From Aridibaculum aurantiacum (GTDB lineage: Bacteria > Bacteroidota > Bacteroidia > Chitinophagales > Chitinophagaceae): DNA of 64,000 nucleotides. The position numbers and the translations under genes are program-made. Under the pieces are notes generated by a model. That model had not been told where the DNA came from and did no database searches. It was given only the letters and a program-made list of their open reading frames with translations. This document shows positions 13,887 to 56,820 of the stretch, one piece after another; within the stretch, counting starts at the first letter, position 1; each line of letters begins with the position of its first letter. Where the stretch lies: positions 12,989 through 76,988 of the forward strand of contig NZ_JAFEWC010000004.1 in NCBI RefSeq assembly GCF_017355875.1, read 5' to 3'.

Positions 13887-15992
13887 ATGTATTCAAAGGA
13901 ACAAGTAGTAGCCCTACAGAAACGCACGAAAGAGCTAATTGAGGCCAATCATACAGAGAAAGCATTCGAGATAATAGAGCAGCTGCGCGACATTCTCCGC
14001 TTTCACGAGTACCGATATTATGTATTGAACGACCCGCTCATTTCCGATGCAGAATACGACCAGCTATACAAACTGCTGGAGAAGATAGAACATTCGCACC
14101 CGGAGCTCATTACAACTACATCACCTACACAACGTGTGGGCAGTAGCCTGAACGCTGCTTTTAAAACTGTTCCGCACCTGGTGCCGATGCTTAGCCTGGA
14201 GAACAGCTATAATGCTGATGACTTAATTGACTGGGACCGCAAAGCAAGAGAAGTAGCCAAAAAAGACGAGCTGGAATATTGCATCGAGCCGAAGTTTGAC
14301 GGTGCCAGCATTTCACTTATTTATGAGAATGACCACCTGGTGCGTGGCGCCACCCGTGGTAATGGTGTAGAAGGCGACGACGTTACCACCAACATGAAGC
14401 AGGTACGCTCTATTCCACTGCACGCTGCCTTTTCTGAATATGGTGTGCACACGGTAGAGATACGTGGCGAGGTGATGATGAGCAAAAAAGCCTTCAAAGC
14501 TTTTAACGAACAACTGGCAGAACAGAACCTGCCGCCACTGGCCAACCCGCGCAATGCTGCTTCTGGTAGTTTGCGCATGAAAGATCCTAAAGAAGTAGCA
14601 CGTAGAAGACTGGAAGCCTTCCTGTACAACATCAGCTATCATACTACTACCGGAGAAGCTGTAGACAAAAAGAAAGATGCGCTGCTGCACACTCACGCCG
14701 GCAACCTGCAGATGCTATGGAATGTTGGCTTTCGCAGCCCGATGAACGAGATGAAGGTGGTGAAGGGAATACAAGCCGTGATAGACTACTGCAACGAGTA
14801 CGAAAGCAAGCGCGACGACCTGCCTTTTGAAATAGACGGCATGGTGATAAAGGTGAACGACCTGGCGCTGCAGGATGCAATGGGCATGACCACCCACCAT
14901 CCCCGCTGGGCTATTGCATACAAGTTCAAAGCAAGGCAAGCAACCAGCAAGCTGCGCAATGTAGAGTTCCAGGTGGGCCGCACCGGCTCTATTACACCTG
15001 TAGCTAAAATTGACCCTGTGTTCATTGGTGGTGTTACGGTTGGTTCTATCTCTTTGTTCAACGAAGATGTGATAAAGGAGAAGGACCTGATGATCGGCGA
15101 CACCGTGCTGGTGGAAAGAGCAGGTGATGTAATACCATACATTGTAAAATCATTGGCAGAGGTAAGAGATGGTAGTGAAACAAACATCCAGTTTCCTACT
15201 AAATGCCCTGCCTGTGAAAGTGAATTATATAGAGAAGAAGGCGAGGCTGTGTGGCGCTGCGTAAACATTGAATGTCCTGCGCAGGTGGTAGAAAGAATGA
15301 TCCACTTTGTAAGCAAAGACGCCATGGACATCCGCAGCTTTGGCGAAGCCAACATTCGAAAATTCTATGAACTGGGACTGCTAAAAGATATTCCCGGCAT
15401 CTACCAACTCGACTGTACCCGCATCGGCAGCCTGCCGGGCTTTGGAAAAAAATCAATAGACAACATACAAGCCGCCATTGAAGCATCCAAGCAACAAACG
15501 CTCAACCGGCTGATCTTTGCACTGGGCATTCGCTATGTGGGCGAAACAACTGCCAAGGTGCTGGCCAATACCGTAGACCACCTGCTCGACCTGAAAAACT
15601 ATAGCGAAGAACAACTCCAGTCGCTGGAAGACATAGGCGTGAAGGTGGCAAAGAGCATCCATACCTTCTTTAGCAACGAACAGAACATAGAGATGCTGCA
15701 TCAACTGGAGAGCTTAGGTGTGCAGATGAATAACACCAAGCGAACGGCTCCTGTAGCCGGTGGCTTAAGCGGTCAGACCTTCTTGTTCACCGGCACCCTC
15801 AACAAACTAAAACGTACACAGGCAGAAGAAATGGTAGAACAGCAGGGAGGGAAGCTACTCGGCAGCGTCAGCAGCAAACTCAACTACCTGGTAGTAGGCG
15901 AAGACGCCGGCAGCAAGTTGGAAAAAGCAAAAAAGATCAACACGGTGAAGATTATTAGTGAAGATGAGTTTTTGCAGTTGATCGGTGGTTAG
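13887..15992 (+). CDS. ligA: NAD-dependent DNA ligase
   Basis: 701 aa. Adenylation motif KFDGASISLIYENDHLVRGATRGNGVEGDDVT. Cys4 zinc finger (CPACESELYREEGEAVWRCVNIECPAQ). HhH and C-terminal BRCT (FLFTGTLNKLKRTQAEEMVEQQGGKL) domains are present. Confidence 0.95.
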   Translation: MYSKEQVVALQKRTKELIEANHTEKAFEIIEQLRDILRFHEYRYYVLNDPLISDAEYDQLYKLLEKIEHSHPELITTTSPTQRVGSSLNAAFKTVPHLVPMLSLENSYNADDLIDWDRKAREVAKKDELEYCIEPKFDGASISLIYENDHLVRGATRGNGVEGDDVTTNMKQVRSIPLHAAFSEYGVHTVEIRGEVMMSKKAFKAFNEQLAEQNLPPLANPRNAASGSLRMKDPKEVARRRLEAFLYNISYHTTTGEAVDKKKDALLHTHAGNLQMLWNVGFRSPMNEMKVVKGIQAVIDYCNEYESKRDDLPFEIDGMVIKVNDLALQDAMGMTTHHPRWAIAYKFKARQATSKLRNVEFQVGRTGSITPVAKIDPVFIGGVTVGSISLFNEDVIKEKDLMIGDTVLVERAGDVIPYIVKSLAEVRDGSETNIQFPTKCPACESELYREEGEAVWRCVNIECPAQVVERMIHFVSKDAMDIRSFGEANIRKFYELGLLKDIPGIYQLDCTRIGSLPGFGKKSIDNIQAAIEASKQQTLNRLIFALGIRYVGETTAKVLANTVDHLLDLKNYSEEQLQSLEDIGVKVAKSIHTFFSNEQNIEMLHQLESLGVQMNNTKRTAPVAGGLSGQTFLFTGTLNKLKRTQAEEMVEQQGGKLLGSVSSKLNYLVVGEDAGSKLEKAKKINTVKIISEDEFLQLIGG

Positions 15993-16200
15993 TGATTGGT
16001 GATTAGTGTGGTTGATAGGTTGATTGGTTGATTGGTTGAGTAGTTGATATGTTGATATGTTGATTGGTAGCTGCATAATGTTGAACAACCTCATTTTCAA
16101 ACTTTCAAATTCTGCTCATTTTCAAAATTTGCTTTCCCCCAAAATCCCCAAATCTCAAAATCCCAAAAATCCCAAAATCTAAAATCTAAATTCTCAAATC
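15993..16200. repeat. Low-complexity microsatellite-like block ((G)TTGATTGG-like, then AAAATCCC/AAAATCT-like short tandem repeats)
   Basis: Direct reading shows gtgattggtgattagtgtggttgataggttgattggttgattggttgag… followed by aaaatccccaaatctcaaaatcccaaaaatcccaaaatctaaaatctaaattctcaaatc. Confidence 0.7.
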
Positions 16201-16206
16201 ACCCCC

Positions 16207-16875
16207 ATGCTCTCCCCTTCCACACTACAATACCTGGTTGATCTGAAAGCCAATAACAACAAGCCATGGTTCGATGAGAACAGGAGCCGGTTAGACGCTG
16301 CACGCAACGACTTCGAACAGATGGTGTCGGAGATACTAAAGCAGCTGGCAGATGCAGATCCTGACATGGCACCGCTGGAACCAAAGAAGTGCATCTTCAG
16401 GCAGTACCGCGATGTGCGTTTCAGCAACGATAAGACACCGTACAAGCACCACATGGGCGCCAGCTTCGACCGGGGAGGTAAGAGCTCAGGCTTTGCCGGC
16501 TACTACTTTCATTGCGAGCCCGGCAACAACAGCATGGTAGGTGGCGGACTGTGGATGCCTCCCGCCGATGTGCTAAAGAAAGTAAGACAGGAAATAGATT
16601 ATTGCTACGATGAACTAAAGGCCATCACCGGCAGCAAAGAATTCAAAAAGACCTACGGCGATCTCGATGCCTCGCCAGAATACAAGCTAACCCGTGAACC
16701 CAAAGGCTACGAAAAAGACAATTCCGCCATTGAATACCTGAAGCTAAAAAGCTTCGTAGCCATCAAACCACTTACCGACAACGACCTCACCTCCAAAGGC
16801 ATCACCAGCAAGATCGTCAAAGACTTCATCGTGCTGATGCCACTGGTGAAGTTTATTAACAGGGCGATTGAGTAG
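16207..16875 (+). CDS. DUF2461 (TIGR02453) family protein
   Basis: 222 aa. The N-terminus QYLVDLKANNNKPWFDENRSRLD and the CEPGNNSMVGGGLWMP motif match the conserved-hypothetical DUF2461 family. Confidence 0.65.
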   Translation: MLSPSTLQYLVDLKANNNKPWFDENRSRLDAARNDFEQMVSEILKQLADADPDMAPLEPKKCIFRQYRDVRFSNDKTPYKHHMGASFDRGGKSSGFAGYYFHCEPGNNSMVGGGLWMPPADVLKKVRQEIDYCYDELKAITGSKEFKKTYGDLDASPEYKLTREPKGYEKDNSAIEYLKLKSFVAIKPLTDNDLTSKGITSKIVKDFIVLMPLVKFINRAIE

Positions 16876-16907
16876 GGACGGGATTACAGGATGCTTTTTT
16901 GGTATGA

Positions 16908-18917
16908 TTATTCTTCAAATCCCTCCTTTTTTGAGAGTTGTAGTATTCTTATTCCATTTTTTGCCTGCTTTACGGACATGCCCTTTCCTCTGCTTTCAAT
17001 AATACCTAAATTGTAAGAAAGCTTTCTGTCGAACGGGGAAAAAAGATTGTTCTCCTTCGCCCATTTTGCCAATGCAAACCAAGTTTCAGCTTTCACAGTT
17101 GATGCTTCTTCAATCATTTTAATTTCCTGCTCTGTTAATGCCTCTGCCTGCATGCCATTACCACCATACAGAACCAGATGGTTTTTTAGCATTCCTGTGT
17201 CAAAATGCTTATCCCTTAACGTCAGCCAACATTCCTGTCTTTTACACCACTCGGTAATGTTCATACCAGACTTTGAGGGTGACATTATATGTTCCCAGAC
17301 TACATCAATGAGGCGGTTGATTATTGCACGTAAGTCGTCATTTAATTCCTGCTGTTGCCAAATGGTTTCCAGATCAAGCTTCTGCCCTGTTTTGAAGGAG
17401 AGAATAGCAATGGTGTAAGAAACAACATTGGCTTTATAGCCTCCTAGCTTTTTTGCCGTTATCATTTTATCAATCTCATGAAATAAAATAGCTTTGGCAA
17501 TCACGTGATGGTACTGCGTCTTGGAAATTTCCACGTTGTGATCCGTGTCCTTCACAAACAACAGGAAGTTTTTTTCTCCTCCTTTACTGGCATCATGAGG
17601 ACGTTGTCGCCAGCTCATCTCATATTTTGCCAAATCTGTTTTATTAAACTTTTGCTTCTTTGGATACTCTACATCGAAGCGCTTCTGATCCTTCTTGGAA
17701 GGTATTCTTGAACGTTCGTCTAAATACTGTCCTCTTGTCCTTTCATAATACCACTTGCTTATAGCTTTTCCTCCACCAGTTTCCGGAACCCACTCACTCC
17801 TCGACCATTGCTCTAGAGAAACGTGATACTGCGAATTTGAACTGAAGTCCGAGTCTTTGATAGCTGTCTGGCTGTTTGCGAACCTTGAAATGCTGGGAAC
17901 TACGTCATTTAAACTGTTACCAGGTTTAACGACAGATATCTTCATCGGCACGAAAGCCCTAGAAAGGTCAATTCCCTTTTCACCGGAGGTGTAATAGATG
18001 GAAGCCGTTGTCTGGCCACCATTCACAATCTGCAGATTCTCAATTCGGTTCAGATAAGGGATACCTTCTTCATATATCACGTCCACTTTTTCCGCGGTGG
18101 TGGAAATGCCATTGTTGTAGGCGAAGAACATATCTGGCTGGGTCCTGATGGTTTCTCGGATGCCGTTATTCACCTTTGCCTTGAACTGCAGAAAGGTCCT
18201 TACATTTTTTTCCAGAAGTCCCTGCTTATACTGGCCATATATGTCTGCGAGAATCAGAGCAGGGAGAATTGCAAGATATTCATCCACTTTATCGCTCACA
18301 TTCTCCATCTGAAGACACTTCAGTCTGTAATTATAATCCCTTTGAAAATCAATTTCAATCTTCTGTTTTCCTGCTTTAATTAAATATTGCTGGTATATCC
18401 GCTCGATATCCCACAGCTCATAATCCCAAATAATATCGTTTTCCTCTTTATCCTGTGGTACAATGTGTGGTGAGCATAGCCCATTGGTAAGGACAAAAAC
18501 ACGGACGTTTCTGGAATAAGCTTTGGTATGCTGTATGATATCAATAAAATCAGACAGCTGTTCGTCTGGCTGATCAACTTTATCTCCAATAGTTCCATTT
18601 CTAACTGCCAGAAAGAACTTTTCGGCTTTGCTGAAAGCGTCTAGCACGTCTTTGTCTGAGATCTTCTGAATTCTTGAATCTTCTTTACTTAACGTGACAA
18701 ACAGATCAATAGCCTCATTGTCATCGTCATAGTCCAAGGCGTTAATTTTCATGCCTCTCACTTTGAAACTGCATACTTGCGGTTCAAGAATTTCACCGCA
18801 ATCTTTTATGTATTCCAAGATATCAATTGTAATTGCATCTTCTAAAGAAAGACTGTCAGTATCGACACTAATCATTACATTTTCAAGAAAGTCAGCTGCA
18901 AATTCGTCAAGTGTCAC
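16908..18917 (-). CDS. AIPR-family (abortive infection phage resistance) protein
   Basis: 669 aa. It has an AIPR-like N-terminus (MTLDEFAADFLENVMISVDTDS…) and carries the VNGGQTTASIYY (NGxQT) motif remembered as diagnostic for AIPR. It lies 11 bp downstream of the DUF1998 gene. Confidence 0.5.
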   Translation of the reverse strand: MTLDEFAADFLENVMISVDTDSLSLEDAITIDILEYIKDCGEILEPQVCSFKVRGMKINALDYDDDNEAIDLFVTLSKEDSRIQKISDKDVLDAFSKAEKFFLAVRNGTIGDKVDQPDEQLSDFIDIIQHTKAYSRNVRVFVLTNGLCSPHIVPQDKEENDIIWDYELWDIERIYQQYLIKAGKQKIEIDFQRDYNYRLKCLQMENVSDKVDEYLAILPALILADIYGQYKQGLLEKNVRTFLQFKAKVNNGIRETIRTQPDMFFAYNNGISTTAEKVDVIYEEGIPYLNRIENLQIVNGGQTTASIYYTSGEKGIDLSRAFVPMKISVVKPGNSLNDVVPSISRFANSQTAIKDSDFSSNSQYHVSLEQWSRSEWVPETGGGKAISKWYYERTRGQYLDERSRIPSKKDQKRFDVEYPKKQKFNKTDLAKYEMSWRQRPHDASKGGEKNFLLFVKDTDHNVEISKTQYHHVIAKAILFHEIDKMITAKKLGGYKANVVSYTIAILSFKTGQKLDLETIWQQQELNDDLRAIINRLIDVVWEHIMSPSKSGMNITEWCKRQECWLTLRDKHFDTGMLKNHLVLYGGNGMQAEALTEQEIKMIEEASTVKAETWFALAKWAKENNLFSPFDRKLSYNLGIIESRGKGMSVKQAKNGIRILQLSKKEGFEE

Positions 18918-18928
18918 AATGTTTGATT

Positions 18929-20995
18929 TTATTGATTAAAAAGTCCAATTCGTGAATTATTAAGTGTTCCGATCACCGCTGCACGATCCAGGTATTTGTT
19001 CATTTTTTCGCAGCTTGTTTCGGGTAGCAGCACACAGGAATAGCAGGCTGCAAGGTTAAGCCCCATAAAGCCCTGCCCCTGTTCTGCTGATATGCAAAGC
19101 GGATCAGAGGAGCACCAGCGCGCTTTATCGACACCTTTGTTCATCACTGATGAAAGATAATCCGGCTGTCCTTTTTCAACCAATCCGCCTAGGGATCCCT
19201 CAGCGTCGGAAGTCGTGGTATAAATAAGGATACCGTTCATCTCTTCTTCAGTCCCGATTGAAGAGTTGCCACTACAGTAGATAATTTCTGCGAGGGATGA
19301 AAGACTGTATCCGCAGTCCTCTGCCAGCTCTTTTAGCAGTATATGGGAAAGTGTATGCAGGAATAAGTACCGTTTATTGATTAACTCATGATTCTGGTTG
19401 AAACTGAGGTTCGCCTGTTCTAAGTTGTGGTTTATCGTATCGAGACGTGCATTCGGATACTCATCTGCCCACGCATTGAGCTTTTTATTACTGAACTTAA
19501 GAAAAATTCCTTCTCCTTTCACTTCAACTGCGGGCAATTCCCTTGTATGCAAGGGGTCTCTGCGTGCATCCTGTATACGCTCAAATTCGTGTTTCTGCTT
19601 CGTATCTAAATTATCCGCAGCTTCTGCAAAAACTAGTTCTTCACCCATCAATGGTTTCACCCGCGTGAACCCCTTATAGACCTTCAGTGCGGAGAGTTTT
19701 TCAAGTAGTACTACTTCCTCCAACAGATCGGGCTGACCTGTGAGGCTGTTGTATTCATTACCATCAACTTTCTTCTTTTTGAACCATACTGTCTTATCCT
19801 TTATCACTGTCCCTGTAAAAGCGCTGAATTCCTGTTGACGAAGCAATACAGCTTTGTTGATAAAGCGCTCTTCGGGCTTTTCACCAAAATGATTCCGGAT
19901 AAAACCGATGACTGCTTCCTTGGTATAGCCAAGTTTCAGCAACTGGTGATTCGGATTGCTTTCGACAAGTCTGATCAGGAAATCGCGCCATTGCTCGTTT
20001 GTATAGTCCTGATATATATCCGGCATACTGTCCCTGAAAATTGTGACCGTTGAGTCCAGATTTTGCTGCACTTCCGGAGGGCATTGCTGCTCATAGGCTG
20101 ACTGTGGCAGGAGGATACCGCTGTAAATAATGGGGAAAATAATATTGCCGGCGCCCCTTTGCATTGTCCTGGGAAACTTGCGCTTTGCAGCCGGTGATAA
20201 ATCATCACCGTCCATGATGTTTCCCTGCCTTGGAACGTCACTGACGAGCTCTGTTACATAGCTCTCATTGTTATGCCATCCTTTCCATGGTTTTGGCAGG
20301 TAATTGTTTACATAATCCAGATAATTTCCTTCTGCATCTGTTTCAGTGAAAATTGACTGGTCAAATATCTGACCGAGATCTCTGCTGGCTAAAAAAGTAT
20401 TGCTTCCTCTCCGGTAACTCTCAATTGTAATATCGCTCAGACCTGCTGATCCTCCCTTTGATTTATAATAAAGCAGATGTCTCTGGCCCCTTTCTTTAGG
20501 ACAGCTTTTGTGAACAAACCAGTCCCAAGGAAAATCACCCAGAAAACCCTCTTCTGTCGCAATCACAAAGCGCATTGGCACCAGATTGGGGCCGATACCC
20601 GTCTGATTATTAGTGCAGGCATCACAAGTAAAAGCTCGCATCTTCTGATCGAAAGAGCCCCGTTCAATTATTGCCTGCCCTCTCGTCTTTGTAATAAAAT
20701 GAATCAGCCCACACTTTGGACAATACTGCGCTCCGGGAAACCGTATTCCATAGGCGGATAGATTATTAATGCCATCCTCCTGTGGGGGAACCACAAAATG
20801 ATCGACCTTAAATGCTTCTGCCAGGCGACTGTCTCTAATCACCTGTTTTTTATTCGGGTCTTCCTGATTTACATTTCCCCAGTCGCCGTAGCCATCATCA
20901 TGGCACAGCATGATCAGTGAAAGCTCCGGAAAATCAATCATTGAGCCGGACGGCCATGTATGTATAATTTGTGACTGTCTGATATCGTAACTCAT
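18929..20995 (-). CDS. DUF1998-domain protein (DrmB/MrfB-like) with an N-terminal zinc ribbon
   Basis: 688 aa. The C-terminal cysteine signature AACYSCVLLPETSCEKMNKYLDRAAV, preceded by TTTSDAEGSLGGLVE, is typical of DUF1998. A second Cys cluster is CPKCG…CDAC. The start lies 3 bp after the helicase stop. Confidence 0.65.
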   Translation of the reverse strand: MSYDIRQSQIIHTWPSGSMIDFPELSLIMLCHDDGYGDWGNVNQEDPNKKQVIRDSRLAEAFKVDHFVVPPQEDGINNLSAYGIRFPGAQYCPKCGLIHFITKTRGQAIIERGSFDQKMRAFTCDACTNNQTGIGPNLVPMRFVIATEEGFLGDFPWDWFVHKSCPKERGQRHLLYYKSKGGSAGLSDITIESYRRGSNTFLASRDLGQIFDQSIFTETDAEGNYLDYVNNYLPKPWKGWHNNESYVTELVSDVPRQGNIMDGDDLSPAAKRKFPRTMQRGAGNIIFPIIYSGILLPQSAYEQQCPPEVQQNLDSTVTIFRDSMPDIYQDYTNEQWRDFLIRLVESNPNHQLLKLGYTKEAVIGFIRNHFGEKPEERFINKAVLLRQQEFSAFTGTVIKDKTVWFKKKKVDGNEYNSLTGQPDLLEEVVLLEKLSALKVYKGFTRVKPLMGEELVFAEAADNLDTKQKHEFERIQDARRDPLHTRELPAVEVKGEGIFLKFSNKKLNAWADEYPNARLDTINHNLEQANLSFNQNHELINKRYLFLHTLSHILLKELAEDCGYSLSSLAEIIYCSGNSSIGTEEEMNGILIYTTTSDAEGSLGGLVEKGQPDYLSSVMNKGVDKARWCSSDPLCISAEQGQGFMGLNLAACYSCVLLPETSCEKMNKYLDRAAVIGTLNNSRIGLFNQ

Positions 20996-20998
20996 AAG

Positions 20999-23900
20999 TT
21001 AAATGCTTTTAATCCTTACTTTGGAAGAAGATTCGACATTTCTCAATGTCTGCATTGTCGGAATGTGGTCCTGCAGCAGGCTTTCAACAAATTGTGCCGG
21101 AGCATTGTAAACAGCATTCGGATTTCTGATTTTAGTTACAACCTGTTCTATGTTGGGGTCATAACGCATATAATCCGTATAGACTGCTAGCCTCCGGTCA
21201 CCATCGAGCATTGAGAGCCGTGTAGTGAACTCCTGCTGAATAGAATCAATTGTATCACATATCTCAGTTGCGTCAGCCGCTCCATAAATGGCAATTGCTT
21301 TGGCTTTGACATCCTGTATAACGCCGTCAACAAATGTCCTGTAAGCTGTATCTGCGGGACTGAATACACCGTGGCTTCCGGTAAGAAACAAACTGCGGGT
21401 CAGGGTAATCAGCACTGTAGGCAGGACCTTTTCGAGTGCCGGCCGGGAGAATGGTGTAACGGAGCTTGCTTCAACATGATAGTAATAAGCCTGATGGAAT
21501 GCCTTGAATTGTTCATAATGTGAACGGTCCCTGTTTTTAGTGGGTGCAAGAAAAGTGAAAACCACACCAGGGCCTTCCCTTCCTACCCTTGAGCTGGCCT
21601 GAATATATTCTGCAGTAGTTTTGGGCTGACCGTTTACAATCATGGTGTTCAGCCTGGGAATATCAACGCCCACTGAAATCATGTTTGTCGCCGGTGCAAT
21701 CTGCACCGGATCGGGATGTCCCCCCATAAGATTGTTTACAGCATTGATAAACGATTTATAATCCTTTTCACTGTCACCTGAAAAAGCAAGATCGATCTGA
21801 TCGAAAAAAGGCTTGTTTAAAAATCCTGACCAGACAGAACCTTTTGCTGTTTTAATATCTCCATTTGTCCGGATACCCGTTGCGAAAAGTTTCTGAACCA
21901 GCAAATTATTTTCATCAAGCCCGGCAGGAAGTGTTGTCTTTTCCAGTCTGTCAAGACCTTTGTTAATGTCATCTGCCGTCATGACACTGGACAATTCACA
22001 AAGGGCATTCTGGTTGAACGGTTTGAAAAACGTGCTGAAATGATTAGCCAGCATTTTCCTGTAAGCGACAATGTCATCGGTAAGAAAGGTCCTGAACTTT
22101 CCCAATTCTTTTAATGCATTGAAATACACAACCAGTGTGTAATACCGATCCAGCTCTCCATTTGCTGCGGGCAGTACAGGTATTCTTTCAAGCAGGACTG
22201 AGGCCAGCCGGATCAGGGCTGTGCTGGTAGTCACACCCGATGGCATGAATCCAACATAGAGCCTGTTCTTTGGATCGTCTACCTTGATTTTCTTTGCGTA
22301 AAACGAATCGTCTGCATCGGTAGCCGGAGGAGGAAACTGAAGAAAATGCTTCCTGCCGTACAAACGCCTGCATTGTTCTTCCGCATTCCGAACGGTTGCC
22401 GTAGCGCCAACGACTTTGCAGATATTTCCCTCAGCTTCCCGGCAAAGTCTGTCGATTACAATCTCATATACCCCATATATCGTTCCCAAGGCAGAACTGA
22501 TCAGATGTAGTTCATCTTGAATGATCAGTTCCGGGGAAGGATAGAGCCGTTTTACCTGATTATTGCTGAACTCTGTATTGAACAGATTGAAGGCATCACT
22601 CCTCCAAGCAAGCTGAACAAATTTATCGACAGTGGAGAACAGCAGTGACGGACGTTCCTGGTAAATTGTTTCATCCACTTCATAAACAGGAAATGTTTTA
22701 TCAGGGTTTTTCCGGAAGTCAGCAGCAGTCACATAGAAGGCACAACGGGTATTTGTGCAGGCCATGTGATAACGTCCTGTTTCACTCCCTCTGTTATTTA
22801 CCGTCCTGAAATAACCCCATCGTCCGATTACCTGATTGTTTTCAATTTCACGGACAAGACGGTTGCCGCAACACGGACAGGACAGCAGCGGAGGTGAACT
22901 TTTGTAAGTACTTGGTTGTCTGCCTCTGTTTACCTGCCTTATATAATCAGCATAGTCCCTCTGCTGATCCTCCTCATTGTTTGGTGTCATGGATCTACCC
23001 ATCCAAATACCGTTTGATATTCTGACTTTCCCATATGCAGCCGGTTCCATCCGCCGGATAAGATCACAGGAACAGATCAGAATTGTTGCCCGCTCAAATT
23101 GTTGTTTGTTAAGAAGTCTCAATGTATACCGCATGAGGACAGAGACACCTGCTCCTTGGTCAGGGTCATTATATGATTTTCTAGCTTTCAAACGCCTGAA
23201 GAAAATAGTGAATGCTGTAAGACCTAAATAAGCTTCAGTCTTACCACCGCCTGTGGGAAACCAGATAAGGTCGACAGTATCACGGTCCGGTGAGGACGGG
23301 TCTGTAATCCCTTGGACCTGGGAAAGTAAGAAGGCGAGCTGAAACGGGCGCCAGCGTGCTAGTGTCCCCGTTTTTTCATAGTTGATTAAATCGATATGGA
23401 GTTCTCCTTCTTGCCATATTTTTCCAGCACCGGCATCAAATGGAATTTTGGTGTAATCGGGCAGGCCGTCATCTGTACCTGCGTTATTTTTCTGTACGCG
23501 TCCTGCCACCCTTCTGTGTCTGCTGAAATCTGCCATTACCCGCTGCATAAACATAGCCCTGTTGGCATCTTCAAAGGCTTTCCGTGCTTCGCTGTCTGCA
23601 GCTAGCAACTCAATCCCTTTCTTCATCCTTTCATAAAGCTTCTCACATTTTTTAAGGTTTTTTACGGCCTGTTCTTTAAGTTTCGGTTCCAGCCCATTGT
23701 TCTTGATTTGCTCTCCCTGATCGACTATCCACTGTTTATATAAATCGATAAACACTTCCAGCTCACTTTTTACCGTTGTCCAGTCATATGACATTTCAAG
23801 CGCAGTTCCGCTCAGTCTCTTTATATACAAAATATTGCTCCCCTTGAATACGTCCGGATTCAGATCCACACCATTCACTTTTTCCTGTGGAAGTACCTGT

Positions 23901-24793
23901 GTAAACACCTTCTGAACCTGGTCGTTTTCTTCATCCCAGTCCACCGATATGCCGTGTCCTTGTGCATAAACTTTGTAATTTCGGTAAAGCAATTTGAGAT
24001 TAAGATCTTCTTCTGACAGAATATTTAAGTCGGTCCGGTCATCAAAAGCTTTGAAACCGTTTGTCGTTTGCACCGTTAGAGATGGCTGAAACAGACAATC
24101 GTCTGCACTTTTCTGGTGACCCGATGATTTTGCTTCCTTCTTATTGATCAGCGTGAAGGTTTTTATTTCGAGGGCTTCCTGACCATATTTATGCGGGTAG
24201 TTCCTTGTTGCAATCGTCAGAATTGCATTCTCATTAAGATTTACATTGATCAGATTTCCATTCTTTGAATAATTAAGGTCGCCAAAATCAAAGGTGTCAC
24301 CTTTAATTTTAAGAGTAAATTCGTGCGGAACATGTTTATATACATTTACGCTGACCATTGTTACTGCTTCCCCCTTTACAACTTCTTTTTCAGCTTTTTT
24401 CTTCACATATACAGCAAAGCGGATATTGATTTCAAGTGAAGCATTTTTTGCAGTAAGAACAGATATCCCTGCAGCAGACGGACGGAACTTAGTGGTCAGC
24501 TCCAGCTCTCCGCTTTTATCTGTAGTATCCGCCTCCTGAGATGCTCTTACTTTCTGTGTTGTTGACTTTTCTTCACCGGAAGTATTTTCGCCTGCATTTT
24601 CCTGCTGCATCTGTGCTCCTGTGCCCACACTGTTGTCGTCCTGCTCCTCGTATTCTTTGGTAAGTGGGAGTTGAGGAAACAATACGCCGACAGAATAGAA
24701 ATCAAGTGGGTTCTTCTCCAGCTGTTCGCCACTACCGTTTATTGGTCCGTGCAGAATTCTCGCAACTTCTGCAACAATAGTTTCTCTGAGCAT
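20999..24793 (-). CDS. SF2 DExH-box helicase with an inserted zinc ribbon (DrmA-like partner of DUF1998)
   Basis: 1264 aa. Motif I WFPTGGGKTEAYLGL, motif II IIQDELHLIS, motif III VGATATV, motif VI QASSRVGR. A CPCCGN…CTNTRC zinc ribbon sits between motifs Ia and II. A ~450-aa N-terminal domain has unknown function. A helicase immediately upstream of DUF1998 is the DrmA/DrmB (and MrfA/MrfB) arrangement. Confidence 0.6.
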   Translation of the reverse strand: MLRETIVAEVARILHGPINGSGEQLEKNPLDFYSVGVLFPQLPLTKEYEEQDDNSVGTGAQMQQENAGENTSGEEKSTTQKVRASQEADTTDKSGELELTTKFRPSAAGISVLTAKNASLEINIRFAVYVKKKAEKEVVKGEAVTMVSVNVYKHVPHEFTLKIKGDTFDFGDLNYSKNGNLINVNLNENAILTIATRNYPHKYGQEALEIKTFTLINKKEAKSSGHQKSADDCLFQPSLTVQTTNGFKAFDDRTDLNILSEEDLNLKLLYRNYKVYAQGHGISVDWDEENDQVQKVFTQVLPQEKVNGVDLNPDVFKGSNILYIKRLSGTALEMSYDWTTVKSELEVFIDLYKQWIVDQGEQIKNNGLEPKLKEQAVKNLKKCEKLYERMKKGIELLAADSEARKAFEDANRAMFMQRVMADFSRHRRVAGRVQKNNAGTDDGLPDYTKIPFDAGAGKIWQEGELHIDLINYEKTGTLARWRPFQLAFLLSQVQGITDPSSPDRDTVDLIWFPTGGGKTEAYLGLTAFTIFFRRLKARKSYNDPDQGAGVSVLMRYTLRLLNKQQFERATILICSCDLIRRMEPAAYGKVRISNGIWMGRSMTPNNEEDQQRDYADYIRQVNRGRQPSTYKSSPPLLSCPCCGNRLVREIENNQVIGRWGYFRTVNNRGSETGRYHMACTNTRCAFYVTAADFRKNPDKTFPVYEVDETIYQERPSLLFSTVDKFVQLAWRSDAFNLFNTEFSNNQVKRLYPSPELIIQDELHLISSALGTIYGVYEIVIDRLCREAEGNICKVVGATATVRNAEEQCRRLYGRKHFLQFPPPATDADDSFYAKKIKVDDPKNRLYVGFMPSGVTTSTALIRLASVLLERIPVLPAANGELDRYYTLVVYFNALKELGKFRTFLTDDIVAYRKMLANHFSTFFKPFNQNALCELSSVMTADDINKGLDRLEKTTLPAGLDENNLLVQKLFATGIRTNGDIKTAKGSVWSGFLNKPFFDQIDLAFSGDSEKDYKSFINAVNNLMGGHPDPVQIAPATNMISVGVDIPRLNTMIVNGQPKTTAEYIQASSRVGREGPGVVFTFLAPTKNRDRSHYEQFKAFHQAYYYHVEASSVTPFSRPALEKVLPTVLITLTRSLFLTGSHGVFSPADTAYRTFVDGVIQDVKAKAIAIYGAADATEICDTIDSIQQEFTTRLSMLDGDRRLAVYTDYMRYDPNIEQVVTKIRNPNAVYNAPAQFVESLLQDHIPTMQTLRNVESSSKVRIKSI

Positions 24794-24802
24794 AAAATTG
24801 AT

Positions 24803-26545
24803 TTAGTTTGAATTGGCGATACGATTCGCGATAACAGAATGATACCGGCTGTTGATAAAAAAAATGCTTTGCGCTGTAGCCCGTGTATTGGCAATATAGA
24901 TCAGTGACATCTGCTTTTTGTCATTCGGATTATAATCTTCCGGACTGCAGATAAGGATAAATCTGTTTTCCAGTCCCTTGTAGGCATGAATGGTTGACAC
25001 AATTACTTTACCGGAAACCGGAAAAGCACTTTCAACATACCGGCCCGGATTGGATTGTACAAGAGATATAAGCTGCTCTCTTTCCGAACAAAGAATTGTT
25101 ACATCTTTTCGTTCAACTCCTTCAGCTTCCAGTTTTATGATTGTCTCACTGACCCTGTTTTTCAGATCAGTATCAGAAGAATAAAACTTTATTTCACTGT
25201 TCCAGGTTTGATCCGTGCGAAGACAGGGCATTTCAGGGAAACCGGTTTGCAGTGAGGCCCTTTTGATTGTGGAAAGCGTATTCCTGCAGTTCAATTGAAG
25301 CAGACTGACAAAGCAGGGATACACATCACGCAAGTACTCAAAATATTCATCTGCATCATTGTTGTAAATGTTCTGGTACTCTTTGTCCATAAAAATTGCC
25401 CAGTTACCTGATTCTAGGCCGCCTTTCAACAGAAGTCCCAGTGCTTCGAAATGATATTCATTCAATATATCCTGCCCCTCATCTATGATCAGGTAATCGA
25501 ACGACCGCTTTTTAGTTTCTGCCAAGTTCCGAACAAACTGAAGCGGCAAATCACGGGACCAGTATTCCTCATTGCTGCTGATGTCACCCGGCGGGTTTTG
25601 AAGAAAATCCCTGTCCCTGTATAAACTATGAAGGTGACAGATAAAATAATTTCCTTCAGTCACAAGGTTACGGCCTTGCTGAGTAAGGTATTCCGCCAGA
25701 TTTTTATTAAAACAGATTAACAGGGTGCGCCTGCCATCTGTAAGTGCCCTTTTGAAAAGCTCCAGCGCGAGGAGTGTTTTGCCGGTTCCTGGGCCTCCCA
25801 TAATCACGCCTCCCTTTCCCGGATTGTATTTCAGGTTATCCAGAATATACATCTGCATTCCTGTGAGGCGCTGTGCTTCCTCGCTTCCTTTTTTCAAAAG
25901 ATCAGAAACGGGCAACCGGAAATGAAGATCCTGCCGGAAGTAACGGCTGACGGTACTTAGTTCTTTCTGACTTAGACCTGATCTTCCAGCATATTGCGGA
26001 TGAGCGGACCAGTATCGTTTAACTTTCTGAAGAAAACCGATTAGACCCCCTTTCTTATGATCACTGTAATCATAAATCAATTCCGGATCAAATTCCATTT
26101 GCCCCATTGTTGATTTTCTGAACTCATCGGGTTTAATGGTGTCAGGGAACAAGACACCGATACCATATACCAGCCGTCCCGGGATGGATTTGCCCCGGAA
26201 CAAATCCGGCAGCAGTGTGTCTCTCGTATAAAATAAAGTGTTGTACGCCTGCCTGAAAGGATCACCCGGCTCTGTACCTCCCTGAACATACCACTGATTT
26301 TTGAGCGAGTCGAATTTTACTGATCCGCCTTTTACTTCCAGAAAAAGGATGCATTCGCTGTCCATGTACACAAAGTCTATCTCTCCTTTGATCTTCTTAT
26401 CCCCTGTTTTTGCCATGTTCAGAGAATGAAAAAGATATTTTTCGGTGTTATTAAAATAAGTGCTGTTTGCGGCCACCACATAAATCTCTTTTTCAGCCTG
26501 TGAGTTGAATTCATATCCGTTCAATGAAGAGGGACTAAGGGGCAT
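24803..26545 (-). CDS. NERD-domain nuclease fused to a UvrD-like SF1 helicase/ATPase (Nhi-like architecture)
   Basis: 580 aa. The N-terminal ~110 aa have a NERD-like (nuclease-related domain) pattern (EIDFVYMDSECILFLEVKGG). Walker A is GGPGTGKTLLALE and Walker B is LIIDEGQD. A UvrD C-terminal motif V-like TIHAYKGLENRFILI is present. Confidence 0.6.
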   Translation of the reverse strand: MPLSPSSLNGYEFNSQAEKEIYVVAANSTYFNNTEKYLFHSLNMAKTGDKKIKGEIDFVYMDSECILFLEVKGGSVKFDSLKNQWYVQGGTEPGDPFRQAYNTLFYTRDTLLPDLFRGKSIPGRLVYGIGVLFPDTIKPDEFRKSTMGQMEFDPELIYDYSDHKKGGLIGFLQKVKRYWSAHPQYAGRSGLSQKELSTVSRYFRQDLHFRLPVSDLLKKGSEEAQRLTGMQMYILDNLKYNPGKGGVIMGGPGTGKTLLALELFKRALTDGRRTLLICFNKNLAEYLTQQGRNLVTEGNYFICHLHSLYRDRDFLQNPPGDISSNEEYWSRDLPLQFVRNLAETKKRSFDYLIIDEGQDILNEYHFEALGLLLKGGLESGNWAIFMDKEYQNIYNNDADEYFEYLRDVYPCFVSLLQLNCRNTLSTIKRASLQTGFPEMPCLRTDQTWNSEIKFYSSDTDLKNRVSETIIKLEAEGVERKDVTILCSEREQLISLVQSNPGRYVESAFPVSGKVIVSTIHAYKGLENRFILICSPEDYNPNDKKQMSLIYIANTRATAQSIFFINSRYHSVIANRIANSN

Positions 26546-26547
26546 GA

Positions 26548-29139
26548 TTATATTTTATAAATTGTCGAAATTCTTTTTATCTCAATATGATTGATAAAAT
26601 CATTTAACAGGTTGTCCGTATAAACCTCATCTTCTTGGAACCTGATACCATAAAGCCGTGCGATAAGTCTACGGATTGCGGTTCTTACAAAGCCTGCCTG
26701 AATGGATTTAAGATCAGCGTTGTGTTTATTGAAAGAACCGATTTCATCATTGTTGATAATGCCAAGTTTACCCAGTGCATGCAGCAAACTCACAAAATTA
26801 TCCGGGCGTTGCGTGTCACCATCGATCCAGTTTTTCACTGTTGCAGGACCAATTTTAAATCCGTTGTCCAGCAGTTTTTTGCAGAAGAAATTCAGGTCCA
26901 TCCGGCACCGGACGATATGATTTTTCAGCAGGAGCCTCCATTTTTTATCCATCTCAATTGCCAGAGAAAACGCAGGGTCTTTTCTTAAGGCCTGCTCCAG
27001 CAGGTCTTTGACCTGAAGACCACGTCTGGCTACAATAATCTGATCACCCGCGCTCAAGGTCGTTACGGACCTAAAAGACGCTTCATAATCAAAATCTTCC
27101 TTATCATCTTCATACACATAGAAATGTCTTGACTCCGGCACCTGACTAAGTGTCCTGTCATCAAACAAAAGAATGTATTTTTCAGATAGTTCTTTTGCAT
27201 TAGAACCTTCATATTGCTGAACAATCTTTTGAACCACTTCCTGCAGGTCAATGTCCTGAACTTCTGATACATTTTGGACAATTTCCGGTTCTAACTTCGG
27301 CACATTAAACTCAACCTCAATGAGACCAGAGGCTATATTATCCGGAGACGAGGATGGCGGCTGGAGATTAAGCAAAGTATACTTCACACGGTCACAACCT
27401 ACTTCTTTTTGTATGTCCTGATATTTACCAAATAGGTTTTTTGCAAAATAGCAGCTTCTTTCATTTAATATAAATAACTGATTTGCTGCTAACACATTGC
27501 CAATTGCCGCACCAATTGTTTTTCTATCACTGGTCAAATAAAATATATATGAAGAAGGAACTTCATTTTTCTGATTAAATGTGTGGAATTCTTTTTTATG
27601 GATATGTAGGATTTTGATGTTAGGGAGGGTCTCTCCCAAAGTATTTACAAGCCACTTCGCATCTTCAATGCTGCTGTTGTCCGATACTATTTCAATTGTT
27701 CCTTGTAAAGTTCTGCTGTTTAGCTCCTGTAAAATAATTGGTAGTTTGAAGTTGACAAAACGAGAATTATTCAAAATGTATTGTTCCAAATACCATTTTA
27801 TGTCTTCTATTAGACCATAATCTTGTCCGCCAGAAAACCAGTTCTGCCGAAGTTCCTCTAAACTGGATAAAAAATCGGTTGAAAATTCCTGCAGAGCTTT
27901 AGGATCGAAAAAAGAATTTAGTTTAGTACGTAGATTGTAAAGACAACTGAGGGGTCGTATTATTTCACCATTACAAAAGCTTTCTTGAGCTATGTTTTTC
28001 AATCTTAAAATCAGGTCCCAAAGTTTCTTATTTAAATTTTCAAACTCAGGATCTCCTGTAGATGTGACAATTACTTTTGGTGGATTAGCTACTTTCTTTT
28101 CATCAAGATCTAATTGCTCCAATGGCTGCAAGAGCCATGGATTGTATTCTATTTTTAATTCATTAAAATAAGTATGAATATCCAGGTTGCTGATCCGGGA
28201 AATTAAGTACATATCCTTGATCTGTTTGTCCCGCACCATTTGAAGATATCCTTCATTTAGGTTTTGTAGTTCTTGCAAAAGGCTTTGTGACCTTTCCCAA
28301 CTGTATATAAAAGAATCGAAATCATCTAAGATTATAGTTTTGACATGATTAAATCGACCTTTACCTGCCTCTATGATTGATTTATAAGCGCGAAACGAAT
28401 CCTGACGTGCAACAATCAGAGAAACTGGAGCATTCTCAGTATTAGGCCCAGAAAGACGCTGAAACCGTAACTCTGCATCGTTGGCAGGAAAAATGACTTT
28501 TTGAATGTTTAAATGTCTTCTTAGATCAGTCCCTGCAACTTTTACGTTTTTAAGAAGACTCTCGAATTTGCTTATATTGGTAAACAAAACAACTGCCTCA
28601 AAATTATCTTGGGGAAGTATTGGAAGAGTAAAAATATTTTGTTCAACTGCTTGATCTAAATCTGCAAATTTCTCAATCTTATCTCTTAAAAAATTTGAAT
28701 TAGACAACCAGTTTAGTTTGTATGTTTCGTCAAATGGAATTGATTTATCACCACCAGTCCCTGCTTGAATAATTAAACTGCGATCTATAAAATTAACTTG
28801 CCTTACATCATATATAGTTCCATTTAAAACGACTTGTTTACAGTTTGGTCCGTATGCTAAATTTCCAAAGTCATGCCTTTTCATTGAAAGGGACAATGCT
28901 TTCCTGTACTGACCCATTATTACAAAGAATGGGACTAAATTTATCGTAGTGGTACTGTTTGACGGATAAAGGCCTATAATTCGGTGGTTCCGATCGACAG
29001 TATTTTGATGGATTAAAAATGGAAGAAGTTGGCTTGCAGTAAAGTCAGACACAATGCAACCATTGATTTCATATTGAAGATTTCTTAAATCTGGGCATTC
29101 GCATGATATGGAATGCTGTATATAAGCCTTGTTAAGCAT
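26548..29139 (-). CDS. Hypothetical 863-aa protein (possible DrmE-like component), strongly AT-rich gene
   Basis: Long uninterrupted ORF, first gene of the tightly spaced block (2-bp gap to the next gene). No recognisable catalytic motif by eye. Composition is visibly AT-richer than the flanking housekeeping genes. Confidence 0.6.
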   Translation of the reverse strand: MLNKAYIQHSISCECPDLRNLQYEINGCIVSDFTASQLLPFLIHQNTVDRNHRIIGLYPSNSTTTINLVPFFVIMGQYRKALSLSMKRHDFGNLAYGPNCKQVVLNGTIYDVRQVNFIDRSLIIQAGTGGDKSIPFDETYKLNWLSNSNFLRDKIEKFADLDQAVEQNIFTLPILPQDNFEAVVLFTNISKFESLLKNVKVAGTDLRRHLNIQKVIFPANDAELRFQRLSGPNTENAPVSLIVARQDSFRAYKSIIEAGKGRFNHVKTIILDDFDSFIYSWERSQSLLQELQNLNEGYLQMVRDKQIKDMYLISRISNLDIHTYFNELKIEYNPWLLQPLEQLDLDEKKVANPPKVIVTSTGDPEFENLNKKLWDLILRLKNIAQESFCNGEIIRPLSCLYNLRTKLNSFFDPKALQEFSTDFLSSLEELRQNWFSGGQDYGLIEDIKWYLEQYILNNSRFVNFKLPIILQELNSRTLQGTIEIVSDNSSIEDAKWLVNTLGETLPNIKILHIHKKEFHTFNQKNEVPSSYIFYLTSDRKTIGAAIGNVLAANQLFILNERSCYFAKNLFGKYQDIQKEVGCDRVKYTLLNLQPPSSSPDNIASGLIEVEFNVPKLEPEIVQNVSEVQDIDLQEVVQKIVQQYEGSNAKELSEKYILLFDDRTLSQVPESRHFYVYEDDKEDFDYEASFRSVTTLSAGDQIIVARRGLQVKDLLEQALRKDPAFSLAIEMDKKWRLLLKNHIVRCRMDLNFFCKKLLDNGFKIGPATVKNWIDGDTQRPDNFVSLLHALGKLGIINNDEIGSFNKHNADLKSIQAGFVRTAIRRLIARLYGIRFQEDEVYTDNLLNDFINHIEIKRISTIYKI

Positions 29140-29250: not shown

Positions 29251-30516
29251 CTACAAAATCTTCATTATTGATTTCGCAATTGCATAAGCCATTAATGGCG
29301 GCACTGCGTTTCCTATCTGCTTGAATGCGGCAGTTCTATTAAAAGATAGTTTTCTTTTAATATCACTTGGCTTCACTCCTTCAAAATAATAATCATCCGG
29401 GAACGATTGAAGCCTGGCTGCTTCTCTAACTGTCAATGAACGGATTTGCTTGATATCAGGATGAATATAATAATGACCGTCTTTCGCTATATGGGCAACA
29501 ACTGTCTGTGAATAAGGCAGGTCATCGGCAACTACTTTGAAACGATCAAAAAAAGAAGTCCTATTGTTATGGGTTTTAAGTTCATCAGGTAGATCATTAT
29601 AATTTAATCTCTCCCCGCTCCTTTTCCACTTCTTTATAGCGATACGATATATTTTTTTGTCTTGTTGGTTATGTGGACGGGAGATATGTTGGGTCAGTAC
29701 GTCTATGCCATTTCTGATGCAATTGTTTATTAAATATTGATTTGTATCACCTGCGTAAGCCTGATATTTATCTATTCCAGCTCCTGCCAATAAAACTGGT
29801 AAATCAACTAATACATCAGCTACGGTGGATTTGGTTTGGTGTTTTACTTCTTCGAGATTTGGTATCTCAAGATTTAAATCTTTCTTCCATCCAATAATAA
29901 TTACTCTCCTTCTTCTTTGTAATACACCAAAATTGTTTGCTTCAACAGTAAACAGTTTCATCTTATAACCTCGATCTAAAAACAGCTTCTCCATCTGTTC
30001 AAGATAAAATCCTCTTTTGGCTGACTTCAACCCAAGAACATTTTCAAATACAAACATTTTAGGTTTATAAAAAGCTAGATAGTTGGCGTATTCTACAAAT
30101 AAATAGTTTCGAGGATCACCCTCCATCTTTGTTGCAGATCTGGATCTACCAGCCAGTGAGTAAGCCTGACATGGAGGTCCACCTATAATTAAATCTACTT
30201 TTTGCTTGCCGAGGAGGCTCTTTATTGTTTTATGAATGGTCTCATTATGCTCAGGCCCAACTGGCAGATTAATTATTGAAGACTTTACTTCATCAGGGAT
30301 TTCTTTATACAATTTTTCTCGACTTATCTCTCCCCTTAAATAGGATACATAGATGCTGTACTGATTGTTTGCCTTCAAGTAATGGTAGGCAGTTCTGGTT
30401 CTTAAGGAATAGCAAGCAGCTTTATCCATTTCAACGTGTGCAATAGGGGTAAATCCTGCCCGGATGAAGCCCTCGGATAATCCACCGGCACCTGCAAATA
30501 AGTCTATGAAGTTCAT
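29251..30516 (-). CDS. dcm: DNA (cytosine-5)-methyltransferase
   Basis: 421 aa. Motif I FAGAGG, motif IV GGPPCQAYSLAGR, motif VI FVFENVLGL, motif X QIGNAVPP. Confidence 0.9.
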   Translation of the reverse strand: MNFIDLFAGAGGLSEGFIRAGFTPIAHVEMDKAACYSLRTRTAYHYLKANNQYSIYVSYLRGEISREKLYKEIPDEVKSSIINLPVGPEHNETIHKTIKSLLGKQKVDLIIGGPPCQAYSLAGRSRSATKMEGDPRNYLFVEYANYLAFYKPKMFVFENVLGLKSAKRGFYLEQMEKLFLDRGYKMKLFTVEANNFGVLQRRRRVIIIGWKKDLNLEIPNLEEVKHQTKSTVADVLVDLPVLLAGAGIDKYQAYAGDTNQYLINNCIRNGIDVLTQHISRPHNQQDKKIYRIAIKKWKRSGERLNYNDLPDELKTHNNRTSFFDRFKVVADDLPYSQTVVAHIAKDGHYYIHPDIKQIRSLTVREAARLQSFPDDYYFEGVKPSDIKRKLSFNRTAAFKQIGNAVPPLMAYAIAKSIMKIL

Positions 30517-30941
30517 TTCCTGGAAGATACAATTTTGCCAGGCAATTTAGCAAGAGTTTTTTGAAGTTTCCCTGCTTTTGTCTCACACTCCCAGACTGTG
30601 AGTACTTTCCATCCAGCATCTTGAAGAGCTTTTTTGTTTCTCTTGTCTCTTCTGACGGTATCCGAAAACTTCTTTTTCCAATTTGTACTAGATTCTTGTG
30701 ATGGAGTCGTGCAATACCTGCAGCCTGGATGCCGATGAAAATAACACCCATGTATGTCAACTACCGTTTTATACTTCGGCAAAACAATATCAGGCTTACC
30801 CGGCAGATCCTTGACATGAAGCCGGTAACGGAAGCCGTGCTTGTGCAGAAAGCGACGCACCAGCATCTCGGGCTTTGTATCCTTGCCCCTGATTGCAGCC
30901 ATATTTTTACTGCGTGTTGCTTTATCATGCACATCTGCCAT
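30513..30941 (-). CDS. vsr: Very-short-patch-repair endonuclease
   Basis: Vsr signature MADVHDKATRSKNMAAIRGKDTKPE…VDIHGCYFHRHPGCRY…VWECE. The stop overlaps the dcm start in ATGA. The supplied ORF extends to 31049 (178 aa), but the conserved Vsr N-terminus begins at the Met at 30941. Confidence 0.8.
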   Translation of the reverse strand: MADVHDKATRSKNMAAIRGKDTKPEMLVRRFLHKHGFRYRLHVKDLPGKPDIVLPKYKTVVDIHGCYFHRHPGCRYCTTPSQESSTNWKKKFSDTVRRDKRNKKALQDAGWKVLTVWECETKAGKLQKTLAKLPGKIVSSRK

Positions 30942-31175
30942 ATACCAAAGCTCCAGTTCAATCATCTCGCCAAAGTCTCTGCCAGCACCTTTAACACCGT
31001 ACAAGTTGCGACCCCGCCTTCGCCAATGCTTCGGTCGGGGCAGGCGCAATCGCGGCCAAATAATATTATAGGGCTGGTCCCATAATAATTCCTTCCCAAG
31101 TAAGCGGCGGCGTGGTAACCATGTGATGGATGATTGGTGGCGAGATCCAACACCTATTCACGCAGCACCCACCCA

Positions 31176-31213
31176 TACAAAAAACAAAAGGAGCAGTTGC
31201 CTGCTCCTTTCCT
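31176..31213 (-). terminator. Rho-independent terminator of the flotillin operon
   Basis: GGAGCAG-gcaact-CTGCTCC hairpin followed on the minus strand by TTTTGTTTTTTG, directly 3' of the flotillin stop at 31214. Confidence 0.6.
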
Positions 31214-56807: not shown

Positions 56808-56820
56808 CTTAATTAATTGT

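Follow-up and report, generated by a model that had tools for sequence, protein, structure and literature searches.

An MzaE-type AIPR gene follows DrmB in a DISARM-like operon that lacks DrmC

What is an AIPR gene doing at the end of a DISARM-like operon? In the window analysed here, 64,000 nucleotides (nt) of an Aridibaculum aurantiacum contig (NZ_JAFEWC010000004.1), a gene of the abortive-infection family AIPR lies directly behind DrmB, and in canonical DISARM loci that position belongs to DrmC (PMC12458937). The original prediction placed this gene last in a helicase/DUF1998 operon and offered two roles for it, an abortive effector that backs a methylation-dependent core, or an occupant of the DrmC slot. 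We read AIPR instead as an integrated, optional accessory subunit of the operon, with a probability of roughly 0.55.

The gene belongs to an island of about 14 kb that is flanked on both sides by housekeeping genes and holds seven minus-strand genes in the order Vsr, C5-methylase, DrmE-like, NERD/UvrD-like helicase, DrmA, DrmB and AIPR. From Vsr to AIPR, the intergenic distances are -4 (an overlap of Vsr and methylase), 111, 2, 9, 3 and 11 nt. The features, with the matches that identify them, are given below.

16908-18917, minus strand: AIPR (MzaE-type), 669 amino acids (aa), the operon's terminal gene (Pfam, PADLOC, NCBIfam)
18918-18928, minus strand: spacer of 11 nt, AATCAAACATT, from the DrmB stop to the AIPR GTG (read from the sequence)
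18929-20995, minus strand: DrmB, DUF1998 / MrfA Zn-binding domain (PADLOC DrmB 6e-61; NCBIfam DrmB_fam 346 bits, cut-off 240)
20999-24793, minus strand: DrmA helicase, YprA family (PADLOC DrmA 6e-192; NCBIfam DISARM_DrmAS 839 bits, equivalog cut-off 950)
24803-26545, minus strand: NERD (PD-(D/E)XK) domain with UvrD-like superfamily 1 (SF1) helicase (Pfam NERD, AAA_19, ResIII, UvrD_C_2; PADLOC RTasNERD-Hel 8.8e-33)
26548-29139, minus strand: DrmE-like protein, 863 aa (Pfam DrmE_C and NCBIfam DrmE_fam scores below the curated cut-offs)
29251-30516, minus strand: C5 cytosine DNA methyltransferase, DrmMII-type (Pfam DNA_methylase 2.9e-62; PADLOC DrmMII 7.8e-169)
30513-31049, minus strand: Vsr very-short-patch repair endonuclease, the island's first gene (Pfam Vsr 4e-30; NCBIfam vsr 129 bits, cut-off 98)
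31186-31211, minus strand: strong terminator-like hairpin, 11 pairs plus a T run, 3' of the SPFH gene, the island's upstream edge
31214-32788: SPFH/Band_7 gene, upstream neighbour of the island
16207-16875, plus strand: DUF2461 gene, convergent with AIPR and 32 nt away; ligA comes next

Class 2 DISARM consists of DrmE, DrmA, DrmB, DrmC and DrmMII (Ofir et al. 2018, from the summaries in PMC9142583 and PMC9252829). In the window, the order and orientation of DrmA, DrmB, the DrmE-like gene and the C5-methylase gene agree with this class; DrmA and DrmB are adjacent with a 3-nt gap and the methylase is of the DrmMII type, both as defined for class 2. The DrmE-like protein scored 20 bits with Pfam DrmE_C (cut-off 27) and 36.6 bits with NCBIfam DrmE_fam (cut-off 80) and had no PADLOC match; its gene stands in the expected DISARM position, and its orthologues at loci L115 and L116 give stronger DrmE_C matches. 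In contrast to class 2 DISARM, the window is without the PLD nuclease DrmC, and neither Pfam nor PADLOC matched DrmC or a PLD nuclease in any island gene, nor did tblastn in the 64-kb window. The locus would therefore fail the strict PADLOC type II definition, in which DrmC is required (PMC9252829). It differs further in adding the NERD/UvrD-like helicase between DrmE and DrmA, Vsr, and AIPR after DrmB. The operon is a class-2-like DISARM variant without DrmC and with extra genes. The window DrmB is 100% identical to an Aridibaculum aurantiacum (Chitinophagaceae) protein. In a plasmid collection, no close DNA match was found, and the plasmid DrmB homologues were distant canonical DISARMs.

The assignment of the terminal gene to AIPR was confirmed by Pfam, with 323.4 bits for AIPR PF10592 (2.6e-96, cut-off 25) at residues 235-547 (profile positions 1-307 of 308), and 103.8 bits for AIPR_N PF22879 (1.1e-29, cut-off 28) at residues 32-176. 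The NGGQT motif, put forward earlier as a sign of family membership, occupies residues 299-303 (18009-18023, minus strand), and the block around it does not vary among 84 homologues. Moreover, the MzaE profiles (PADLOC PDLC02207; NCBIfam NF041935) gave 2.1e-77 over residues 49-572 and 1.9e-107 (360.3 bits, below the equivalog cut-off of 1050 bits), respectively, and the PADLOC match to AbiU (2.4e-23) was limited to residues 223-402. The reading frame is intact, with a GTG start and 669 aa. The public nr entry, P0064, has 466 aa, apparently starts at Met204 and is 100% identical over 70% of the open reading frame; this gene model drops AIPR_N, and under it the 11-bp gap would not exist. Because homologues align from residue 1 and AIPR_N is intact, the GTG start is supported; the short model looks like an annotation truncation, and the long open reading frame is presumably the real gene.

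The 11-bp gap after the DUF1998 gene was reproduced, with the DrmB stop codon at 18929-18931 and the AIPR start at 18917. AIPR converges on the DUF2461 gene 32 nt away, so the island ends with AIPR, as had been predicted. Co-transcription of AIPR with the operon is probable and agrees with three observations: the DrmB–AIPR spacer measures 3-22 nt in every readable related locus (L001, L017, L081, L083, L114, L115), the island scan found no terminator upstream of AIPR, and none of the three island sites of the Bacteroidetes -7 motif TAnnTTTG lies within 400 nt upstream of it. A sigma-70 promoter scan was uninformative, as its 32 sites compare with an expectation of 33 in shuffled sequence and this promoter type is wrong for Bacteroidota.

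AIPR proteins had been described as usually annotated as stand-alone, a premise that, for this clade, did not survive a survey of gene neighbourhoods. One genome per species was scanned with the window AIPR, which yielded 79 loci; the neighbouring open reading frames were clustered and representatives annotated. About 60 of the 79 had the Mza architecture, C5-methylase–MzaB–MzaC–MzaD–AIPR (MzaE), and these contexts span many phyla. Another 11, from Prevotella/Segatella, had the order AIPR, superfamily 2 (SF2) helicase, C5-methylase and McrBC-like protein. Where the flank was sufficient, a C5-methylase lay at most 10 kb from AIPR in 55 of 60 loci, and in just one of the 79 loci (L015) AIPR was without a recognised partner set. 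Therefore, this clade is not stand-alone; its members nearly always stand last in multigene systems linked to a C5-methylase, chiefly Mza, in agreement with Iyer et al. 2013 (PMC3632139). AIPR followed DrmB in just two of the 79 loci, one from Telluribacter (L001, 72% identity) and one from Hymenobacter metallilatus (L017, 45%), both with the order DrmE, NERD helicase, DrmA, DrmB, AIPR.

Two side observations concern these other contexts. The architecture of L021-L031, from Prevotella/Segatella and other Bacteroidales, is the third recurrent one: AIPR comes first and an SF2 helicase (ResIII/Helicase_C, WG repeats) second, then one C5-methylase or two, and beyond them a small protein, a McrB/LlaJI-like protein with AAA_5 and a large partner. 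In addition, three Neobacillus/Bacillus loci (L056, L078, L075) carry two AIPR genes each; in L056 and L078, an additional MzaD–AIPR pair stands upstream of a complete C5-methylase–MzaB–MzaC–MzaD–AIPR set, and the extra AIPR copies form a very divergent branch.

MzaE belongs to the mzaABCDE anti-phage system (Gao et al. 2020, cited here through PMC9523054). The window AIPR is of the same family with nearly full-length architecture, and it is 54-60% identical to Bacteroidota proteins encoded after MzaB, MzaC and MzaD. A terminal operon position and an association with a C5-methylase and Vsr are likewise common to both. In contrast, the genes upstream of the window AIPR encode the NERD helicase, DrmA and DrmB, and tblastn found no match to MzaB, MzaC or MzaD at E < 0.1 in the 64-kb window. 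With these partners absent, the window locus is not an Mza system.

The reverse survey started from DrmB and combined a homologue search, a metagenome scan with a DrmB alignment and the tracing of eight DrmB homologues in their contigs. The set of C5-methylase, DrmE, NERD helicase, DrmA and DrmB was kept across loci at 35-82% DrmB identity. AIPR followed DrmB on the same strand, with a gap of 3-22 nt, in the window and in loci with DrmB identities to it of 76% (L114, Spirosoma flavus), 74% (L083), 73% (L001), 69% (L115), 68% (L084, AIPR partial), 65% (L081) and 35% (L017). Furthermore, in P0002 (DrmB 82%) DrmB is followed after 11 nt by a gene of 651 aa that runs off the contig, has no Pfam record and is probably AIPR. 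The comparison of related genomes proposed earlier found the junction in at least seven loci; the survey from DrmB contributed about six beyond the two of the AIPR scan. It was not found in about 15 others that have downstream sequence (L080, P0014, L082, L119, L116, L085, L087, L089, L090, L091, L096, L097, L100, L117, L118). After DrmB, some of these have nothing on the same strand, Vsr, or a methylase; others have a GHKL REase_II-like protein of 638 aa (L089; fragmented in L091), a 336-aa HNH protein (L096), a C5-methylase with RE_HpaII (L117), or an MkoA-like helicase of 1338 aa that is perhaps part of a neighbouring system (L085). As different genes occupy it in different loci, these data suggested that the post-DrmB position is a swappable accessory slot. 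As separate observations, L115 carries AbiEii/DUF6088, ArdC-like and N6-methylase genes (14307-17880) after its DISARM–AIPR operon, as is typical of a mobile defence island, and its AIPR has diverged faster than its DrmA and DrmB (56% vs. 67-69% identity to the window).

Is AIPR then a replacement for DrmC? A bona fide DrmC directly follows DrmB in L105-L109, L111 and L112 (DrmB about 27% identical), and these loci have no NERD helicase between DrmE and DrmA. By contrast, the NERD and UvrD-like SF1 helicase stands between DrmE and DrmA in every locus of the window's lineage (L001, L017, L081-L100, L114-L119), and DrmC is absent from all of the approximately 25 loci of this NERD-helicase lineage, with or without AIPR; NERD helicase presence coincides with DrmC absence, and the helicase gene is a gain of this lineage. 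The suggestion that AIPR sits in the DrmC slot is correct as to position and weak as to substitution. Because the whole lineage lacks DrmC and other genes may follow DrmB, AIPR takes the post-DrmB slot as an optional extra and not as a one-for-one DrmC substitute.

The protein itself was assessed from an AlphaFold2 model (pLDDT 80.6, pTM 0.49) and from conservation over 84 homologues for AIPR and 19 for the NERD helicase. The AIPR model has three parts, an alpha/beta N-domain, a central AIPR domain and a helical C-terminus, of which the first two are:

18366-18917, minus strand: N-terminal domain, residues 1-184, predicted restriction-endonuclease-like fold, canonical catalytic motif not conserved
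17238-18365, minus strand: central domain, residues 185-560, bearing every family-invariant residue, weakly ParB/Srx-like

Columns conserved in at least 98% of homologues are all kept in the window protein (E236, N238, R240, YNNG 267-270, QIVNGGQTT 296-304, K326, N348, Q350, D357, W389, E392, R393 and K431), and the family-invariant residues are all located in the central domain. The N-domain, modelled as a restriction-endonuclease fold, has no conserved D...(D/E)xK motif: position 59 is D in 48 of 84 homologues and N in the window protein, position 71 is D in 45 of 84, and at position 73 only F, I or V occurs, K in no homologue (F73 in the window). An active PD-(D/E)XK nuclease in the N-domain was considered and downgraded, as the catalytic columns are not conserved. 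FokI was among the structural matches of the model, and PadC, Pnob8 ParB-N, BrxU and sulfiredoxin matched weakly. For the full-length model, Foldseek against the PDB returned nothing at E <= 0.001; phmmer and profile hmmsearch against PDB sequences gave no meaningful match, and no ParB, DUF262 or nuclease family was found by Pfam at E <= 10. The NGGQT loop of the model follows a beta-strand and precedes a helix, as does the DGQQR/DGQHR loop; together with the weak structural matches, it gives the protein a weak likeness to ParB/Srx-fold modules (DUF262 of GmrSD, BrxU and SspE; DndB). AIPR, AbiU1 and COG1479 have been placed in one group of the ParB superfamily (PMC3632139), and AIPR has been described as a ParB-superfamily domain linked to restriction-modification systems (PMC3632139, PMC2292703). 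A search for a partner interface among Bacteroidota AIPRs found only five fixed differences between DISARM-linked and Mza-linked proteins, with no domain bias.

On one alternative, AIPR would be a direct functional substitute for DrmC, a nuclease effector that is recruited by activated DrmAB and degrades unmethylated invading DNA, with its restriction-endonuclease-fold N-domain under the control of the ParB-like domain. The position behind DrmB and the modelled fold fit this account, which we nevertheless consider unlikely. DrmC is missing throughout the NERD-helicase lineage, also from the roughly 15 loci that have no AIPR, so the role would already be covered by something else, provided that it is needed; Bravo et al. 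noted that DISARM can dispense with DrmC and often lacks it (PMC9142583). Moreover, the window N-domain carries N59 and F73 in place of catalytic residues, whereas the NERD domain keeps D57, E70 and K72, which together with the Walker A G253-T257 are conserved in at least 90% of the 19 homologues. The earlier proposal of AIPR as the replacement effector is accordingly weak. The NERD helicase is a candidate nuclease of the system, and its motif makes it more plausibly the agent of DNA cleavage than AIPR.

A second alternative, also improbable in our judgement, is that AIPR works as a second layer of its own, independent in function and tied to the operon only by location and transcription. Such an Abi-like or type-IV-like module might act on modified-cytosine phage DNA that evades methylation-based discrimination, or arrest growth when DISARM fails. 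The likeness to AbiU (AbiUi of the Lactococcus plasmid pND001) would speak for it, as the central AIPR domain is shared and AbiUi has a predicted FokI-like nuclease fold (PMC13064643) that matches the FokI match of the modelled window AIPR. However, this similarity is partial, being confined to residues 223-402; AbiU is a single-gene system and a more distant relative of the AIPR clade (PMC13064643), in contrast to the window AIPR in its seven-gene operon. MzaE-type AIPRs are essentially never alone, as L015 is the sole case without recognised partners, and AIPR is nearly always 3'-terminal with a gap of 3-22 nt, as expected for a subunit. No toxin-like or membrane effector domain points to cell suicide. 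Nothing supports an abortive mechanism or, with it, the abortive layer of the proposed two-layer design; the "abortive infection" label is historical and goes back to AbiU, whose protection is modest and which delays phage transcription (PMC13064643). An AIPR left over without function from an Mza system that has decayed is far less credible still: fragments do accumulate in defence islands and MzaB, MzaC and MzaD are missing from the window, yet the 669-aa frame is intact with all family-invariant residues, the spacers are tight, the junction recurs in at least seven loci of different families and orders at 56-72% AIPR identity, and a second, independent junction exists in L017.

If AIPR is an integrated accessory subunit, its conserved engine would be the central domain, probably a ParB/Srx-type nucleotide-dependent DNA-binding module like DUF262 in GmrSD/BrxU or like DndB. 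Because the canonical catalytic residues are missing, the N-domain would more likely serve in DNA binding or partner docking, as a non-canonical or inactive endonuclease fold, and the NERD helicase would be the likelier cutter. AIPR may act largely irrespective of the identity of the motor protein and be functionally linked to self-marking by 5-methylcytosine. The C5-methylases are exchanged among closely related loci: the enzyme of the window shares 31% identity with that of L001, although DrmB and AIPR are 72-73% identical between these loci, and it is 65-67% identical to the methylases of L081 (DISARM) and L009 (beside an Mza locus). Methylase lengths also vary among the other AIPR-positive relatives. 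Because the methylases of AIPR-positive relatives differ, AIPR is not tied to a single methylation specificity.

How the gene came to stand behind DrmB was addressed with neighbour-joining trees. In the AIPR tree, the six full-length DISARM-linked proteins (window, L001, L114, L083, L081, L115) were monophyletic in 200 of 200 bootstraps and nested among Bacteroidota Mza-linked (MzaE) proteins. The Hymenobacter protein (L017) joined them in 0 of 200 and formed a basal branch of the Bacteroidota group. The DrmB tree put every AIPR-positive locus but L017 in one crown clade (94/100), which also holds the AIPR-negative pair L080 and P0014 (100/100). The simplest reading is that an Mza-type AIPR was captured once, where the crown clade begins, and came to stand right behind DrmB, was inherited with the operon, including a transfer between Chitinophagales and Cytophagales, was lost once within the clade, and was captured a second time, independently, in the Hymenobacter lineage. 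Since Mza contexts span many phyla, we infer Mza to be the donor and DISARM the recipient. Co-divergence judged by pairwise identities was also tried and discarded, as the correlation was due solely to the outlier L017 and the crown clade alone was uninformative.

Several points weigh against the picture of a captured, integrated subunit. The direction from Mza to DISARM depends on the breadth of Mza contexts, the tree samples were small and the method was neighbour-joining, and pairwise distances within the crown clade show no co-divergence (r = 0.25, n = 10). Two AIPR-positive loci are incomplete (P0002, without a Pfam record, and L084, partial), and co-transcription is deduced from gene spacing alone. 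In addition, D71 is invariant within the Bacteroidota AIPR clade, so a non-canonical active site is possible and AIPR may be a nuclease through such a site in its N-domain.

Elsewhere in the window, at 53692-58032 (minus strand), a polyphosphate kinase gene lies between the genes of a Guanylate_cyc-domain protein (53692-54765) and an HD/PycTM protein (56821-58032), the latter with a match of 6.6e-35 to the Pycsar effector TM domain; the two proteins may form a Pycsar-like cyclase/effector pair of a split or atypical kind.

No paper that connects AIPR to DISARM components or to DUF1998 turned up in a full-text literature search, and no description of the NERD helicase as a DISARM component was found in the literature searched. 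The text and supplements of a recent YprA-family survey leave AIPR unmentioned and mention NERD for the unrelated TALON systems only, not for DISARM. A DISARM operon with an AIPR borrowed from Mza is an unreported but unsurprising reshuffling of known parts, incremental and without a new principle. We know of no biochemistry of AIPR or MzaE, and this natural chimaera could help to reveal their function. A lineage without DrmC, with a NERD nuclease-helicase in its core and a variable post-DrmB slot, bears on the killing step of DISARM. Bravo et al. proposed that DISARM may "mix-and-match" nucleases and other components (PMC9142583), and the NERD-helicase lineage is a concrete natural case of such borrowing.

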